The notes beneath the pieces are model-generated. The model saw only the letters and a program-made list of their open reading frames with translations, did not search any database and was not told where the DNA came from. Below, piece after piece: positions 43,236-53,040 of a DNA stretch of 64,000 bases (position 1 is its first letter; every line of letters starts with the position of its first letter). The position numbers were made by a program, and so were the translations under genes. Source of the stretch: an uncultured delta proteobacterium. GTDB lineage: Bacteria > Myxococcota_A > Polyangia > Palsa-1104. The stretch lies in assembly GCA_963785725.1 (NCBI GenBank), contig CAWAWS010000005.1:192001-256000 (forward strand), read 5' to 3'.

Positions 43236-43688
43236 TTACTTGAGCGTGACGTCGAGCATCGCGACGCGGCGCGCGTGCCGGCCGCCTTCGAACGGCGTCT
43301 CCAGCCACACGCGCAACGACTCCTCGGCCACCGCGGCGCCGATGAGCCGCTCGCCGAAGCAGATGACGTTGGCGTCGTTGTGCTGCCGGGAGAGCCGCGC
43401 CGCCGTCGGCTCGGAGACGAGCGCCGCGCGCACGCCGGCGACTTTGTTGGCCGCGATCGAAATGCCGATGCCCGAGCCGCACACGCAGACGCCGCGCGCG
43501 TCGCCGCCGAGCTGCACGACGCGCTCACCGACGGCGCGGCCATATTCGGGATAGTCGACCGACGCCGTCGAGTGCGCGCCGACGTCTTCGACGTTGTGGC
43601 CCCACGCGGTCAGCTTGTCGGCGAGCAGCGACTTCAAATTGTAGCCCGCGTGATCGGAGCCGATCACGACCGTCAACGGCTTTTGCAA
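43236..43688 (-). CDS. rpiB: Ribose-5-phosphate isomerase B
   Basis: GSDHAG, VDYP, CGSGIG, ANKV, HNDAN, FEGGRH. Confidence 0.95.
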   Translation of the reverse strand: MQKPLTVVIGSDHAGYNLKSLLADKLTAWGHNVEDVGAHSTASVDYPEYGRAVGERVVQLGGDARGVCVCGSGIGISIAANKVAGVRAALVSEPTAARLSRQHNDANVICFGERLIGAAVAEESLRVWLETPFEGGRHARRVAMLDVTLK

Positions 43689-43691
43689 ACG

Positions 43692-44940
<1,249 letters not shown>

Positions 44941-44975
44941 GTTTGGCCTTCAGCGACTACCTGAAGCCGCTTTGC

Positions 44976-45211
44976 TTAGGGGTTGGCGTGCGCTTTGATG
45001 TACTCGATCGCGTCCTTGACCGTCTTGATCTGCTCGGTGTCCTCGTCGGGAATCTCGATCGAGAACGCCTCTTCGAGCGCCAGCACCAGCTCGACGACGG
45101 CGAGCGAGTCGGCCTTGAGATCGTCGGTGAACGACGCCTCGGGCTTGACCTGCTCGGGGCTCACTTCGAGCTGCGCGCAGATGATCTCTTTACCTTCTGC
45201 TCGACGTTCAT
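44976..45211 (-). CDS. acpP: Acyl carrier protein, one base missing at about 45190
   Basis: MNVEQKV-[shift]-EIICAQLEV...[20 protein letters not shown]. Confidence 0.95.
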
Positions 45212-45262
45212 CTCATTCTCCTGTGAGCTTCTGATCGCGACTTCGGCTGGCTGGAAAGCGTT

Positions 45263-46005
45263 TTACATCAAAAGTCCGCCGTTGACGCGCACAACTTGTC
45301 CGGTGACGTAGGAAGCCGCCTCGGAGACGAGGAAGCGCACGGCGTCGCGCGACGTCTTCGGCCGAGCCGATGCGTCCGAGCGGGATCTGCTTGACGAGCG
45401 CGTCGCGCGCGTCGCCTTGCACGTGCTCGGCCGTCATGTCGGTCTCGATGAAGCCGGGCGTGACGCAGTTGACGGTGATCGCGCGCGACGCGAGCTCGCG
45501 CGCCAGCGACTGGGTCATGCCGATGAGGCCGGCCTTGGCCGCCGCGTAGGAGACCTGGCCGCCGTTGCCCTGCTCGCCGACGACGGACGAGATGTTGACG
45601 ATGCGGCCGGCCGGCGACTTCAAGAGGTAGCGCGACGCGGCCTTGCAGCAGTGGAACGCGCCCGACAGGTTGACGTCGAGCGTGCGCTGCCAGTCTTCGC
45701 GTCTTGGTGCGCAGGAGCAGGCCGTCGATGGCGATGCCGGCGTTGTTGACGACGACGTCGAGCCGACCGCGCTCTTGCGCGAGCTGCTTTACCGCGGCGT
45801 CGACCGCGTCGGCGTCGGCGACGTCGAAGCGCGAGAGCGCGCCGTCGCCGCCGGCGTCTTCGATCGCCTGCAGCGTCTCGGCCGCGGCCGCTTCGTTGGC
45901 GGTGTAGTTGACGATGACGAAGAGCCCGTCCTGACCGAGCGCGATGGCGATGGCGCGGCCGATGCCCCGCGATGCGCCGGTGACGAGCGCGACGCGCTTA
46001 TCCAT
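45263..46005 (-). CDS. fabG: 3-oxoacyl-ACP reductase, frameshifts at about 45700 and 45350
   Basis: VTGASRGIG, VNNAG, YAAAK, PGFIETDMT, ending GQVVRVNGGLLM*. Confidence 0.95.
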
Positions 46006-46893
46006 TGTTCGCAACTCCTTGCAGCGGCTGCAGCTTCACGGCCGGCGCGATGCGCTTGACGAGACCGGCCAGCACCGCGCCCGGCCCCACTTCGTAGGCT
46101 TCGTCGACGCCGAGCGCGGCGAGCTTTTGCACCGACTCTTCCCAGCGCACGCTGCCCGTCACTTGGCGATGCAGCAGATCCTTGACCCGCGCCGCGTCGC
46201 TGTTCGGCTCCGCCGTCACGTTGGCGACGACGGGAATCTTCAGCGGCGCCACCTTGACGCGCTCGAGCTCGGCGCGCAGCCGCTCGGCCGCCGGCGCCAT
46301 CAGCGCCGAATGGAACGGCGCCGACACCGGCAGCGCCTTGACCAGCTTGGCGCCCTTTTGCTTCGCCAGCGCCATCGCGCGCTCGACCGCCGCTTTGTGG
46401 CCGGCGACGACGACCTGCCCGGCGCCGTTGAAGTTCGCCGGCTGACAGGCTCTCGCTCTCGTCCGGCGACGCTTCGCGGCAGGTGTCGCCGACCGTCGAC
46501 GCGTCGAGCCCGATGATCGCCGCCATCGCGCCCACGCCTTCGGGCACCGCCTCCTGCATGAACTTGCCGCGCAGGTGAACGAGCCGCACGGCGTCCGCGA
46601 ACGTCAGCGCGCCGGCATAGACCAGCGCCGAATATTCGCCGAGCGAATGGCCGGCCGCGATGTCGGCCTCGATGCCGCGCTCGCGCAGCTGATCGGCCCA
46701 CGCGATCGACACCGTCAGAATCGCCGGCTGCGTGTTCTGCGTGCGCATGAGCTCGCCGTCGGGCCCTTCGGCGATGATCTTCGACAGCGCAAAGCCGAGC
46801 GCCTCGTCGGCCTCGGCGAAGCGCGCGCGCGGCAAGGCCCGCGTCCATGCCGACCTTCTGCGAGCCCTGCCCGGGAAACAGGAACGCGCGCAT
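45998..46893 (-). CDS. fabD: Malonyl-CoA:ACP transacylase, frameshifts at about 46840 and 46450
   Basis: FPGQGSQ, TQPAI, GHSLGEY, VSAPFHS, VRWEES, EVGPG. Confidence 0.95.
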
Positions 46894-46982
46894 CACCGCG
46901 CTCCGCGCGTTGACGCGCAAACCAACGATCCGCCGGCCCTACGGGCCTGGCTCACTTCGCTTCGCTTCGCTCCGCTCATCGC

Positions 46983-47968
46983 CTAGAACCGCACCAGCGC
47001 CGAGCCCCACGACAGGCCGGCGCCGAGCGCGGCCATGAGGATGAGGTCGTTCGGCTTGACGCGCCCTTCGCGCGCCGCCTCGTCGAGCGCGATCGGAATC
47101 GAGGCCGACGACGTATTGCCGTACTTATGGATGTTCAAATAGAAGCGATCGAGGCCGATGCCGACGCGCTCGGACACGCCTTCGAGGATGCGAATGTTCG
47201 CCTGATGCGCGACGACGACGTCGACGTCCGCCGCCGTCTTGCCGTTGTGCTCGAGCGCCGTCTTGGCCGCGGCCGAGATGTTCTTGACCGCGTGCGTGAA
47301 CACCGACTTGCCCTGCATCTGCACGAGATGGCGCTTGGCCTCGACCGACTTGAGCGACGTCGGCTCCAGCGATCCGCCGCCGGGGATGTTGAGGAACGGC
47401 ACGCCCGCGCCGTCGGCGAAGAGGTGCGTCGACTGGATGCCGCGCTCGTCCGTCGACGGGACCGAGCAGCGCCGCGCCGGCGCCGTCGCCGAAGAGCACG
47501 CAGGTGTTGCGATCGGTCCAGTCGACGCAGGCGCGACAGGATCTCGACGCCGATGACGAGCACGTTCTTGAACTGCCCCGAGCGAATGAAGGCGTCGCCG
47601 ATGGACAGGCCGTAGATGAAGCCGGCGCAGGCGGCCGAGATGTCGAACGCGGCCGAGCCCGGACGCGCGCCCAGCTTCTGCTGCACGGTGACGGCGACGG
47701 CCGGCATCGGCATGTCGGGGCTGATGGTGCCGACGATGATGCAGTCGATCTGGCTCGGATCGATCTCGGCCGTCTCGCAGGCGCGCCGGCCGGCGTCCGC
47801 CGCCAGATCCGACGTCGAGCGGCCCTCTTCGAGGATGCGCCGCGCGCCGATGCCGGTGCGCTCGCGAATCCACGAGTCGGAGGTCTCGACCAGCTTCGAG
47901 AGGTCGTCGTTGGTCAACACCTTGTCCGGCACAGCCTTGCCCGTGCCTGCGATGCGCGCTCTCAACAT
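46983..47968 (-). CDS. fabH: 3-oxoacyl-ACP synthase III, frameshifts at about 47530 and 47460
   Basis: WIRERTGI, FDISAACAGF, LFGDGAGA, HQANIRI, YGNTSSASIP. Confidence 0.95.
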
Positions 47969-49313: not shown

Positions 49314-49844
49314 CTAACTGAGCTTGAGCTTTTCGAGCGCGGCGAACCGCGGGTCACCGAGCCCAGCGACGGAATGGCCGCAGTTGAGCTCGTTCTTGTT
49401 CTGTCCGCAAACGGTGCATAAGCCGACGCAATTCTCGCGGCAGCGCGGCGCGATCGGCAGCGCCAGAATCAGCTGCTCGCGCACGATCGGCGCCAGATCG
49501 ACGTTGACGCGGTCGTGCGTGGCCACGTCGACGTCGTCGAGCGGGTCGTCGCTCACCGCGATCTTGCCTTCGTTGGCGACGAACGTCATGTGCAGCGGCA
49601 CGTCGACCTTGATCTGCGCCGGGCCCAGACATTTGCCGCACGGCACCGTGATCAGCGCCTTCAAGCCACCGACGACAAAGACATTTTCGTCATCGCGATC
49701 GTAACGCAGGGCGACTTGCAAGTGGCCCGTCGTGGCGTCGAGATCGACGTCGAGCCCGGCAAATGCGTCGGCGAGGAGCGCTTTGGAGAGCTCCTGCTGA
49801 TCGAGCAATCCGTCGCTCGGTATGTCCTTGATTTTATAGCGCAT
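49314..49844 (-). CDS. YceD/DUF177 family protein
   Basis: CGKCL, REQLILALP, CRENCVGLCTVCG, DPRFAAL; immediately upstream of rpmF. Confidence 0.92.
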   Translation of the reverse strand: MRYKIKDIPSDGLLDQQELSKALLADAFAGLDVDLDATTGHLQVALRYDRDDENVFVVGGLKALITVPCGKCLGPAQIKVDVPLHMTFVANEGKIAVSDDPLDDVDVATHDRVNVDLAPIVREQLILALPIAPRCRENCVGLCTVCGQNKNELNCGHSVAGLGDPRFAALEKLKLS

Positions 49845-49979
49845 AACTGGAAAAAAGACGGCTCAATATAGTCGGAACGGCCTGGAAGTCAAGCCGAAAC
49901 CCCAAATTCACAGGTCGTCTACCACACTTCGGCGGGCTCTGCCCGGGAATCGGCGCTGGGGAGCTGCGCCGCGAGGATT

Positions 49980-51287
49980 CTAAGGCGTCAGCCGCGTGAG
50001 GTCGCGCGGAAAGAGCACGGCCTCACGAATATTGCCGAGGCCGGTCAGCTGCATCAGGAAGCGCTCGAGGCCGATGGCGAAACCGCCGTGCGGCGGCATG
50101 CCGTGCTTGAAGACCTCGAGATAGGCCGCCAAGGGCTCGCTCGCCATCCCGCGCGCCGCCAGCGCCGCCAAGTAGTCGGCGTGGCGATGCAGCCGCTGCC
50201 CGCCGGTGACCAGCTCGGTGCCGCGAAAGAGCAAGTCGAACGAGCGCGAATACGCGGGCCGCGCCGGGTCGGGATGGGTATAGAACGGCCGCTTGTGCAG
50301 CGGATAGCCGACGACGAAGAGCCACTCGCTGCCGTGCTCCTCGGCGGCCCAGCGGCCGAGCCAGCGCTCGCCCTCGGGCGACAGGTCGGGCTGGCCGCGC
50401 TCGTGCTCACCGAGCGCGCCGGCGATCCGCTCCTGCGCTTCGGCGAAATGGATCTCGGGCACGCGCTCGGGCAGCTCGGGCAGACGCGTCGCGAGCAGCG
50501 CCAGCTCGACGGCGCAGCTCGCCGCAAGCTCGGCCAGCATCGCGCGCAAGGTCCGAGTGAGCTCGCGCATGACGTCGGCGTGGCTCTCGATGAAGCCGAG
50601 CTCGACGTCGAGGCTGGTGTACTGGTTGATGTGGCGCACGGTGTCGTGCGGCTCGGCGCGGAAGACCGGGCCGACTTCGTAGACCCGCTCGAAGACGCCG
50701 ACCATGATCTGCTTGTAGAGCTGCGGGCTCTGCGCCAAGTACGCTTCCTGCTTGAAGTAGCGCACGGCGAAGACGTTGGCGCCGCCTTCGGTGGCGCCGG
50801 CGACGAGCTTGGGCGACTGGATCTCGGTGAAGCCGCGCGCGTCCAGCGAGCCGCGAAAGGCGCGCATCGCCGCCGCGCCGAGCCGGAAGATGGCGCGCCG
50901 GGTCGGATGACGATTGGCGACGACGGCGTGGTCGAGCAGCGCCGGCAGCTGCGCGCGCAGCGCCTTCTTGCCGAGCACGATCGGCGTCGGCTCCGTCACC
51001 GGCGCCAGCAGACGCAGCGTGATGCCGTGCAGCTCGACGCCACCCGGCGCCTGCGCCTCGGCGACGACGTCACCTTCGAGCTCGACGACCGACTCGGCGA
51101 GCGCGCCGGCCGCGCGCAGCGGCTCGAGCCGCGCCTCGTCGGTGACGACGGCCTGCACGAGGCCCCAGCCGTCGCGAATGACGAGGAAGGTTAGACCGCT
51201 GAGCCGACGCTGCGCATGCAGCCAGCCGGCGATGCGAACCCGCGCGCCAATATGCGCGGCTACTTCAACCGAACGAACACGTTCCAT
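49980..51287 (-). CDS. aspS: Archaeal-type, probably non-discriminating aspartyl-tRNA synthetase (Asp/Asn)
   Basis: 435 aa, too short to carry the bacterial insertion domain; YLAQSPQLYKQ, FRAE, PPHGGFAIGLER; GWLH and APGG carry the His/Pro typical of non-discriminating enzymes. Confidence 0.92.
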   Translation of the reverse strand: MERVRSVEVAAHIGARVRIAGWLHAQRRLSGLTFLVIRDGWGLVQAVVTDEARLEPLRAAGALAESVVELEGDVVAEAQAPGGVELHGITLRLLAPVTEPTPIVLGKKALRAQLPALLDHAVVANRHPTRRAIFRLGAAAMRAFRGSLDARGFTEIQSPKLVAGATEGGANVFAVRYFKQEAYLAQSPQLYKQIMVGVFERVYEVGPVFRAEPHDTVRHINQYTSLDVELGFIESHADVMRELTRTLRAMLAELAASCAVELALLATRLPELPERVPEIHFAEAQERIAGALGEHERGQPDLSPEGERWLGRWAAEEHGSEWLFVVGYPLHKRPFYTHPDPARPAYSRSFDLLFRGTELVTGGQRLHRHADYLAALAARGMASEPLAAYLEVFKHGMPPHGGFAIGLERFLMQLTGLGNIREAVLFPRDLTRLTP

Positions 51288-51374
51288 CGGACGCCCCTTT
51301 GGTGCTGGCCCTGCCGTGTGGACGCGGAAGCGCGCCTGCGGCAGGCCCAGCGGCCCGTCAGGCGTCTTCCCGCG
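51288..51374 (-). promoter_or_regulatory. Structured aspS leader with alternative helices overlapping the RBS
   Basis: 51359-51374 can pair with 51323-51338; alternatively 51339-51351 pairs with 51304-51316; GACGCC is complementary to GGCGTC at the AAAGGGGCGTC RBS. Confidence 0.65.
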
Positions 51375-51399
51375 GATCGTCTCCGTCGATGGTGTTCAT
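51358..51399 (-). CDS. Putative aspS leader peptide MNTIDGDDPREDA
   Basis: 13-codon ORF with 4 Asp and 1 Asn, ending 70 nt before aspS; TTGACT-N17-TCCACT promoter-like element upstream. Confidence 0.65.
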   Translation of the reverse strand: MNTIDGDDPREDA

Positions 51400-51468
51400 G
51401 ACGCCCTTAGTGGAGCGTGTCGCGCGCGCGAAGTCAAGGCGCGCCGAGCCAACGCGTGAGCGAGATCG

Positions 51469-53040
51469 CTATTTGCCGGCCGAGCCGAGCAGCGCGGCGC
51501 CGCCGATGGTCAAGAGCGCGCGAATGTCGTCGTCGTTGAACGTGAGCTGCGCGCCGAAGAAGTAGTCGCGCCCGGTCGAGACGCCGGCGCCGGGGCCGCG
51601 GCCGTTCAAGACGTCGTCGATGCCGCCGACGAGCCAGATGTGCCGATAGAACTCGAGCGCCGCCATGATCTTCAAGCGCGGGTAGATGTTCGTCGTGAAG
51701 TCGAAGAGGTCGAGGTTGAGCGACACCGAGCGAAACGACGCCCGCGTGACCGACAGCGGCAGATCGACGTCGGCGCCGATGCCGCCGGTCGACTCCTTGA
51801 TGCCGAAGCGGCCGGTCAAGATGACGCGACCGTCGAGCAGGAAGAAGCGCTTGGCGAGCTGAAAGCTGAAGCGGAAGCGATCGGTGGTCGTGATCGTGTT
51901 GGTGACCGTCGTCTGCGGCTTCGAGGGATCGTCGGTGGTGACGTAGCTCGTGCTGTTGCTCGAGTAGCCGCGCGGATCGTCGACGAGCTCGATGAGGAAG
52001 TACTTGTCGGGCCGCGACATCAGCTTGACCGAGACGTACGTCTTCAACGAGTTGGCGAGGACGTTGTACTCCGAGCGCAGGCCGATGAGCGTCTGCAAGC
52101 GCGTGATCGAACGGATGAATCCGCCCGCGTCCTCGGTGATCTGCTCGACGTTGTTGGCGATGGTGTCGTCGTTCAAGAGGCGGCCGACGGTGCCCTCGCC
52201 CGCTTTGACCTTGTCGGTCATCGTCGACATGTTCTCGAGCGTGTGGTTCAAGTTGTCGACGGCGGAGCCGATCTTGTCGAGATCCTGGCGCAGCTTGTCG
52301 CCGGTCGAGTTCATCTGCGTGTCGCCGTTGCCGACGAGCGCTTTGACGCTCTCGGTGATGTCGCGGATGTTCGACAGCGACTTCTTGATGTCCGCCGACG
52401 CCTGACCGGCGGTCATGCCTTTGACGTCGAGCGCGATCGAGTCGACGTGCTTCAACAGCTGCTCCGCCGCCGCCGAGTTCTTGTCGACGGCGCCTTGCAC
52501 GCTCTTGGCGATGTCCTGCAGCGGCCCTTGCGTCAGCTTGTGCACGTCCTGAAGGATCGAGCGCAAGACCGGCAAGGTCTCGTTCACCTGCACCAAGATA
52601 TCGCTCGTCGACACCGCTTCGACGACGTTGGGAATCTGATCCCCGTCGCGCAGGAGGTTGTTCTTCTTCATCAGCCCGGTGACCGGATCGGGCGACTCCG
52701 ACGTGCCGGGATCGATCTCGAGGTAGAACTCGCCCAGCAGCGACGCCGTCTTCTTGAAGACCGTGGCGTTGGACCAGATCTGCGTGTTGGGGATGACGCG
52801 GATCGTGATCTTGGCGAACGAGCCTTCCAAGCGGCGGTCGACGATCTCGCCGACGTTGAGGCCGGCGATCTGCACGCGCGACTTGTCGACGAGGCCGGTG
52901 GCGTCATGGAAGATGCACCAGACGCGATAGCCCTTGTTGCCGGAGATGCCTTTGGCGACGAAGCGAAAGCCGACGAAGCCCAAGATCGCGATCAACATCA
53001 CGGTGAGGCCGACCTTGATGGCCGCGGCGGTCGGCTTCAT
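51469..53040 (-). CDS. mlaD: MCE/MlaD family protein with coiled coil and beta-rich C-terminal domain
   Basis: DATGL..KSRVQIAGLNVGEI, SLLGEFYLEIDPG, GEGTVGRLLND. Confidence 0.9.
   Translation of the reverse strand: MKPTAAAIKVGLTVMLIAILGFVGFRFVAKGISGNKGYRVWCIFHDATGLVDKSRVQIAGLNVGEIVDRRLEGSFAKITIRVIPNTQIWSNATVFKKTASLLGEFYLEIDPGTSESPDPVTGLMKKNNLLRDGDQIPNVVEAVSTSDILVQVNETLPVLRSILQDVHKLTQGPLQDIAKSVQGAVDKNSAAAEQLLKHVDSIALDVKGMTAGQASADIKKSLSNIRDITESVKALVGNGDTQMNSTGDKLRQDLDKIGSAVDNLNHTLENMSTMTDKVKAGEGTVGRLLNDDTIANNVEQITEDAGGFIRSITRLQTLIGLRSEYNVLANSLKTYVSVKLMSRPDKYFLIELVDDPRGYSSNSTSYVTTDDPSKPQTTVTNTITTTDRFRFSFQLAKRFFLLDGRVILTGRFGIKESTGGIGADVDLPLSVTRASFRSVSLNLDLFDFTTNIYPRLKIMAALEFYRHIWLVGGIDDVLNGRGPGAGVSTGRDYFFGAQLTFNDDDIRALLTIGGAALLGSAGK

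Follow-up and report, generated by a model that had tools for sequence, protein, structure and literature searches.

Background

Leader-peptide transcription attenuators are known in their classical form from trpL, hisL, and pheM-pheST. Candidate leader attenuators of trpS and leuS are given in the cited part of PMC1262725, and the T-boxes treated in the cited part of PMC2494555 control synthetase genes via tRNA charging. Two described systems come close to the leader reported here, which stands before an aspS gene. Ms5788A is a polycysteine leaderless sORF attenuator of mycobacteria and, as far as the cited part of bioRxiv 10.1101/834739 describes it, our leader resembles it in having a short and probably leaderless uORF in which one amino acid is abundant, in the predicted stable rod through which the uORF 3' end pairs with the SD downstream, in the absence of an intrinsic terminator, and in that stalling would be expected to switch the gene on. 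Measured against the same part of that source, our leader differs in that it would sense Asp (perhaps Asn) for a tRNA synthetase, that its sensing codons precede the anti-RBS rather than form it, and that a decoy segment and a second covarying helix give it an alternative fold. The LEU element of actinobacterial leuA, in the cited part of PMC1262725, has a uORF that pairs with the SD in a base stem, together with helices able to form a pseudoknot, a layout much like that of our leader, but there the run of Leu codons itself pairs with the SD, whereas here the Asp codons lie outside the SD stem. That part of PMC1262725 also reports that mutations of the Leu codons were without influence on regulation, and because of this the leuA analogy put forward in the initial annotation holds for the layout but Ms5788A is the better tested analogue. 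The leader of the window showed no sequence or Rfam match to the LEU element.

Like the initial annotation, which knew of no Asp leader for aspS, we found no Asp/Asn leader peptide for this gene in the published literature searched, although one supplement, a T-box survey, and an attenuation review outside its coverage could describe one. The supplement of one RNA-motif paper is said to describe an actinobacterial 'aspS' RNA motif. The aspS gene of Shewanella is listed only as 'tRNA synthetase leader' in the cited part of PMC2659441, and no aspS passage was found in PMC4833913 or in the main text of PMC5737381. According to the cited part of PMC4206432, Deinococcus and Thermus have a second AspRS of archaeal type, which is termed rare in bacteria.

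Results and Discussion

The aspS2 gene and its genomic setting

The window is a 64,000-nt stretch of a contig from an uncultured delta proteobacterium. On its minus strand, positions 49980..51287 encode a 435-AA archaeal-type aspartate-tRNA(Asn) ligase (ND-AspRS, aspS2) matching PRK05159 (522 bits) and TIGR00458 (382 bits), both above cut-off, and the nearest solved structure was AspRS2 of T. thermophilus (1n9w, E 2.7e-116). The QAPGG of the product aligned with the KAPGG of 1n9w, where 3nel carries a Lys in place of the anticodon-domain Pro; we take this Pro, as in T. thermophilus AspRS2, to be a mark of non-discrimination. Judged by the family model and the Pro residue, the product is an archaeal-type, predicted non-discriminating AspRS. 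It is also an extra one, because the same genome encodes a bacterial-type aspS. That gene, asnS, and gatB (C7:718653-720417, C15:427624-428905, and C43:8385-9706) each lie in pieces resembling assembly indels, and four asnB-like genes are present. Within the window, fabF, fabG, fabD, and fabH are frameshift-split (43525-47968); such splits in housekeeping genes are most likely assembly indel errors, and the extra aspS is unbroken. A promoter-like TTGACT-N16-TATATT site lies on the minus strand between aspS and yceD (window 49844-49980); the yceD-plsX-fab cluster is therefore probably served by a separate promoter. Among 61 related genomes, aspS2 was carried by only 3, and no further close homologue of its N terminus was found in a 401-genome sample of the phylum.

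The leader uORF and its predicted promoter

The uORF that the initial annotation had placed upstream of aspS, MNTIDGDDPREDA, was found there (51358..51399, minus strand, reading from 51399 to 51358), and the claimed Asp/Asn richness was reproduced, with four Asp and one Asn among 13 residues (5/13). In this genome, an ATG-initiated sORF with at least 5 D/N and at least 38% D/N stood upstream of 1 of 10,229 long ORFs, which was aspS2. The uORF and the helices described below were kept in two genomes of the same genus despite different upstream DNA, and the search for conservation in relatives that had been proposed returned an Asp/Asn-rich uORF across 60 distinct leaders.

A TTGACT-N17-TCCACT promoter had also been suggested. 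Both hexamers are present on the minus strand, the -35 box TTGACT at 51432..51437 and the -10-like TCCACT at 51409..51414, with the 17-nt spacer between them, but a scan of the leader region found no promoter passing a strict sigma-70 consensus. The spacing recurs: six of ten stand-alone leaders have a TTGA beginning exactly 38 nt ahead of the uORF ATG, TTGAC stands at this distance in all nine Haliangiales-order matches with a uORF (9/9), and relatives have TA-starting hexamers at the spacing of TCCACT. The position of TCCACT implies a putative start site with a 5' UTR of about 2-3 nt and hence a near-leaderless uORF. In an RNA run, a low-depth contig spanned 51168-51381, at a depth insufficient as a sign of transcription.

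Two covarying helices

The four pairing segments proposed for the mRNA and the GGCGTC over the aspS RBS were all located in the window as claimed. On the minus strand, segment 1 (51359..51374) comprises the uORF 3' end and stop codon and is the candidate anti-RBS, segments 2 (51339..51351) and 4 (51304..51316) are the 5' and 3' strands of helix 2:4, segment 3 (51323..51338) is the decoy partner of segment 1, that is, an anti-anti-RBS, and segment 5 (51288..51297), the aspS RBS and spacer, is predicted to pair with segment 1 in free RNA. Segments 1 to 4 were supported by covariation, segment 1 also by folding, and segment 5 by folding. In an alignment of 26 rows, a few of them misaligned in segment 4, 92.6% of the cells of the two helices were paired, with double changes at 15 of 19 pairs; helix 1:3 was paired in 95.7% of cells (double changes at 5/9 pairs) and helix 2:4 in 89.6% (changes on both sides at 10/10 pairs). 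None of 500 shuffles scored as high, a test inflated by sequence relatedness, and slid controls were paired in 31-48% of cells. Leader counts throughout overstate independence, because the sequences are related. Both helices thus covary on aligned leaders, the check that had been suggested for them. Native segments also paired better than swapped ones, in 604/702 swaps for 1:3 and 661/702 for 2:4. For the pairing of segment 1 with the RBS (1:RBS), native beat swapped in 438/702 and z was below -1.5 in 15/27 leaders; it is not as well conserved as the two helices. As read from these sequences, segment 1 could pair either with segment 3 or with the RBS region, and 2:4 is a further conserved helix. 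Segment 3 as an anti-SD was rejected as a candidate (3:RBS in 1/27, z -0.72, native better than swapped in 341/702).

The gap between segments 2 and 3 measured -1 to 2 nt in 28 of 29 leaders, while other loops were variable. Such abutting segments have the geometry of a stacked H-type pseudoknot, in which 1:3 and 2:4 may coexist. The two had been presented as alternatives; both are indeed conserved, but with a pseudoknot possible their mutual exclusion is doubtful. Adding a rough pseudoknot energy term to the folding changed little.

Sequence variation at the locus itself was compared among contigs, leaving out sequencing runs with a small share. Contigs from four studies carried A for G at 51296 (minus strand), which turns a U-G pair of 1:RBS into U-A, and in one independent contig all 12 substitutions fell outside 51297-51391. 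High GC makes stable folds common and this assembly has many indel errors, yet conservation and covariation contradict the notion of a chance ORF with chance hairpins in GC-rich DNA, as do the 12 of 12 substitutions outside 51297-51391, and we consider that notion negligible.

Codon content and candidate sensing positions

Codon positions were numbered from the Glu codon that opens the core of segment 1. In 29 leaders, which had initially been chosen by D/N content and from which six near-duplicates had been removed, position -3 (D8 of the window) was Asp in 23 and Asn in 6, accounting for all 29, and a stop codon stood at +3 in 26. Because the training leaders had been chosen by D/N content, we also scanned with an RNA pattern that ignores the upstream codons. 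It matched 27 of 145 upstream regions, with D/N three codons before GAA in 26/27 and a stop three codons after in 23/27; in the control, 64 of 12,000 windows matched and none combined D/N at -3 with a stop at +3. Asp and Asn together made up 146 of 237 leader codons (62%, vs 8% in genes), Asn alone accounting for 35 and Glu for 9, none of the latter at positions -5 to -3. To judge from these counts, Asp and Asn exchange freely in the leaders and Glu is no substitute.

The initial annotation had proposed sensing of both Asp and Asn, with the Asp codons of the uORF as the signal. Asp is favoured, but Asn is doubtful for the window's subgroup, whose stand-alone leaders hold 28 D vs 4 N among 71 codons; leaders in tandem with a T-box hold 83 D and 31 N among 166. 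The likely sensing codons are D5, D7, and D8 (51376..51387, minus strand), of which D8 is at position -3, held by Asp or Asn in every one of the 29 leaders. The last Asp of the uORF (in E-D-A) drops out as a sensing codon, because it lies inside segment 1 and the equivalent residue is usually Gly or Arg (Asp in 1/29). A queuosine/NAU reading, raised by a GAT or AAT last codon in 27 of 29 leaders, was set aside: His codons are few and all CAC, Tyr is absent, and pairing with the start region can explain the U.

In mgtL, an acidic N-terminal leader acts as a ribosome destabiliser. Our leaders are acidic too and have a recurrent E-[GR]-[TAV] ending, which would fit a peptide that acts itself, either as an MgtL-like destabiliser or as an arrest peptide, and senses Mg2+ or general translation stress. 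However, Asn often stands for Asp (35/237) and Glu seldom does (9/237), and the regulated gene is an AspRS. The last uORF codons, moreover, vary in step with segment 3, and therefore the peptide end follows the RNA; changes of C-terminal codons are compensated in segment 3, and leader L270 has lost the Glu with its helix compensated. Exchange of D and N without E, and C-terminal residues that follow RNA pairing, set the leader apart from arrest and acidic peptides (MgtL, SecM), and we hold a peptide effect to be very improbable.

Folding, RBS access, and the proposed mechanism

The window leader folded at -66.4 kcal/mol (z = -3.38) into 2:4 plus 1:RBS, and the pairing of segment 1 with the GGCGUC over the aspS RBS, as initially proposed, is part of this predicted MFE fold. 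Free RNA contained 2:4 in 26/27 leaders, 1:RBS in 21/27, and 1:3 in 0/27; in a second leader set, 1:RBS was found in 16/30. The RBS was closed by more than 2 kcal/mol in 48 of 60 leaders. By prediction, then, a feature of the Ms5788A type is present, with the uORF 3' region pairing the downstream SD in ribosome-free RNA. As had been claimed, there is no U-tract terminator: no U tract was seen, and no terminator-like site was found in 51000-52000.

In nascent RNA cut before segment 4, helix 1:3 depended on ribosome position. An A site at codon -6 or -4 allowed it in 27/27 leaders, and an A site at the Glu or stop codon in 0/27; when the last Asp was in the A site, it survived in 25/27 (ribosome edge +13) or 11/27 (edge +16). 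The nested barrier between folds was 13-21 kcal/mol in five leaders. Across the 60 leaders, the median cost of opening the RBS was 10.5 kcal/mol in free RNA; it fell to 5.5 when 1:3 was held, a saving of more than 2 kcal/mol in 44 leaders, and to 4.4 when the leader was taken away. At equilibrium, with a ribosome stalled at codon -4, the median was 10.6 vs 10.5 kcal/mol free (11.7 in the window). A purely thermodynamic stall model is therefore insufficient, as the stalled ribosome leaves the RBS closed, and for the same reason the switch would have to be kinetic. The suggested folding with and without a ribosome footprint accordingly bears out a closed RBS in free RNA and the dependence of nascent 1:3 on the ribosome, and the idea that stalling selects the fold agrees with nascent-RNA folding but not with equilibrium folding.

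Based on these data, we think it rather probable that the Asp-rich leader ORF and the RNA switch form a translational attenuator raising AspRS output when charged tRNA-Asp is scarce. This core of the initial annotation, a leader-peptide switch for aspS translation, is backed by conservation, covariation, the fixed Asp/Asn codons, and the RBS-sequestering ground state. In the modelled order of folding, 1:3 would form first in the growing RNA and leave the RBS open (ON), and the finished free RNA would adopt 2:4 plus 1:RBS (OFF). With plentiful Asp-tRNA, the ribosome would run through segment 1 and melt 1:3, 2:4 would then enclose segment 3, and after release of the ribosome segment 1 would pair with the RBS and turn aspS off. 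With scarce Asp-tRNA, the ribosome would wait at D5, D7, or D8, just upstream of segment 1, and 1:3 would persist, possibly stacked on 2:4 as a pseudoknot, so that aspS is translated. Here we infer translation of the uORF, stalling, and aspS output, and the order of folds is that of the model.

The mechanism reported, with tests, for Ms5788A in the cited part of bioRxiv 10.1101/834739 suggests another course, in which occupancy alone matters: a stalled or queued ribosome would sit on some of segment 1 and the sequence just 5' of it and block the OFF rod, with 1:3 only helping. The OFF fold does include the last Asp codon and the start codon in its span, and an A site at the last Asp lowered the cost of RBS opening by more than 1 kcal/mol in 18/27 (edge +13) or 20/27 (edge +16) leaders, but this partial opening, seen in 18-20 of 27 leaders, did not occur in the window, where 1:RBS is built from the 3' half of segment 1 and the RBS stays closed at codons -4 and -3. 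The sensing codons, furthermore, lie upstream of the anti-RBS and not within it, and the strong covariation of 1:3 would be left unexplained; we regard control by occupancy as unlikely.

We give still less credence to positive coupling or a protein site (LEU-element-like, or AspRS autoregulation), in which finished leader translation or a bound protein would open the RBS and the Asp codons would be no signal. At equilibrium, RBS opening was indeed cheapest with a ribosome at the stop codon (median 4.4 vs 11.2 kcal/mol), and the pseudoknot-compatible helices with a base stem over the SD recall the LEU element, for which the cited part of PMC1262725 proposes a protein. Such readings are opposed by the 62% D+N codons, the free D/N exchange, and the synonymous variation at fixed positions, as well as by the Asp-specifier T-boxes on the same genes and the unrelated D/N leaders with GC hairpins (uORF in 30/33) before Deinococcota homologues, as described below.

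An RNA family before aspS2 and its relation to T-boxes

For the window leader, Rfam gave no match at E<=10 except chance ones and a pattern search found no T-box motif. At gathering score, leaders among 20 related loci had no Rfam match either, a threshold at which the T-boxes of relatives were missed too. We surveyed the regions upstream of aspS2 in the best 80 of 384 genome loci and the best 80 of 324 metagenome loci, and among these the gene was preceded by the leader alone (Myxococcota-type), by the leader behind a transcriptional T-box (Ktedonobacteria-type), or by a T-box alone. In Deinococcota, a fourth kind was seen, an unrelated D/N uORF (30/33) with a GC hairpin, after which there are often U residues, and the amino-acid-blind pattern of the window's leader family matched no Deinococcota leader. 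Those leaders resemble ours in serving the same gene family and in placing a D/N-rich uORF a few codons ahead of a segment that pairs, but their RNA is different, a GC hairpin often with a U tract. Among these Deinococcota loci (L067-L109), Trueperaceae leaders end L-G-A, with codons matching the hairpin arm, and Thermus loci are without a clear U tract.

A covariance model built from 26 leaders gave strong matches in the window's own genome and 61 relatives only at aspS2, in three carrier genomes, and no second element was found among the 150 of 2,759 candidates scored in the own genome. It matched 46 of 121 genomes in a Ktedonobacteria sample and 10 of 140 in a Haliangiales-order sample that left out one unpublished genome. 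We examined 39 matches, leaving out 17 class matches without a locus and three training loci. Directly downstream of 37 of them, each with a uORF, lay an aspS2-type AspRS, the other two being the weakest order matches, and a T-box motif stood upstream in 28/28 examined Ktedonobacteria matches. Removal of four of the 37 that duplicate training leaders gave the total of 60 distinct leaders. On this comparative evidence, the element defines an RNA family absent from Rfam and located always before the aspS2 gene clade.

T-boxes with an Asp or Asn specifier precede the aspS2 family in Chloroflexota and Actinomycetota. With a pattern that allowed only GAC and AAC, the specifier was GAC in 57 of 79, AAC in 4, and unread in 18. 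The GAC-reading T-boxes on the same genes support induction by uncharged tRNA-Asp. The four AAC T-boxes (L040, L144, L150, and L166) come without a leader and the tandem T-boxes with a read specifier are all GAC; the tandem leaders hold more Asn codons. Numbers are small.

Several loci depart from these arrangements. A tandem subgroup (L162, L191, L244, and L251) keeps the uORF and both helices with little predicted RBS pairing, and therefore its output step may differ. At the Ktedonobacteria-type loci L186, L169, L171, L180, L190, and L197, repeats inserted between T-box and aspS disrupt the leader or seem to have taken its place; two successive T-box motifs (with an N gap) lie upstream at L141; a duplicated terminator follows the T-box at L037; and one genome (G706; L278 and L281) has two near-identical leader copies, each before an aspS start. 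Two more distant AspRS-like genes of the window's phylum (L118 and L119) have Asp-rich uORFs, MGSDDDDDDDDEGSPRVT and MDDNDDDLGSQRS, about 130 nt before the AspRS match, in a different RNA layout.

In a quick tree of 141 proteins, with short rows dropped and L204 mislabelled, eight stand-alone loci formed one branch (SH-aLRT 99) adjoining the Ktedonobacteria-type group (81) inside the T-box-bearing Chloroflexota genes; one stand-alone locus was placed elsewhere, on a long branch. The gene may have been transferred from Chloroflexota, with loss of the T-box. As a tentative extension, which we judge somewhat less than evenly probable, the family may be one in which a ribosome waiting for Asp-tRNA keeps in place a kinetically trapped pseudoknot with the anti-RBS strand bound in it; Ktedonobacteria would wire it behind an Asp T-box, so that tRNA-Asp charging is read twice, and in Myxococcota-type hosts it would work alone after the gene moved.

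Placement among described systems

The leader has the general features of leader-peptide attenuators, namely enrichment of cognate codons before an AspRS gene and alternative helices of conserved spacing that overlap the uORF. As in the classical attenuators, some of which control aminoacyl-tRNA synthetase genes, the position of the ribosome on cognate codons would choose the helix; unlike the trpL/pheM type, the window has neither terminator nor U tract, and its output would be the predicted RBS access. It is like the T-boxes of the cited part of PMC2494555 in placing a synthetase gene under predicted control via tRNA charging, but the window has no T-box and sensing is proposed to occur through the ribosome. 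On the features compared, the leader is outside classical terminator attenuators, T-boxes, LEU elements, and arrest peptides.

Conclusions

The element before aspS2 is real and well supported, and its mechanism is predicted to be translational attenuation. The switch, of about 110 nt and with known compensatory variants, makes folding-order control of translation initiation directly testable, and cultured carriers of the leader element exist, such as Dictyobacter kobayashii. If the prediction is true, aspartate is a further amino acid that leader peptides can sense, and the leader explains how a second, non-discriminating AspRS stays low until needed. Under the tentative extension to Ktedonobacteria, the reading would be double, of uncharged tRNA at transcription and through the ribosome at translation. 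With T-box, T-box plus leader, leader, and leader plus terminator-type hairpin, one gene family holds four control designs, a natural experiment in how one form of tRNA-sensing control gives way to another when a gene enters a new host.
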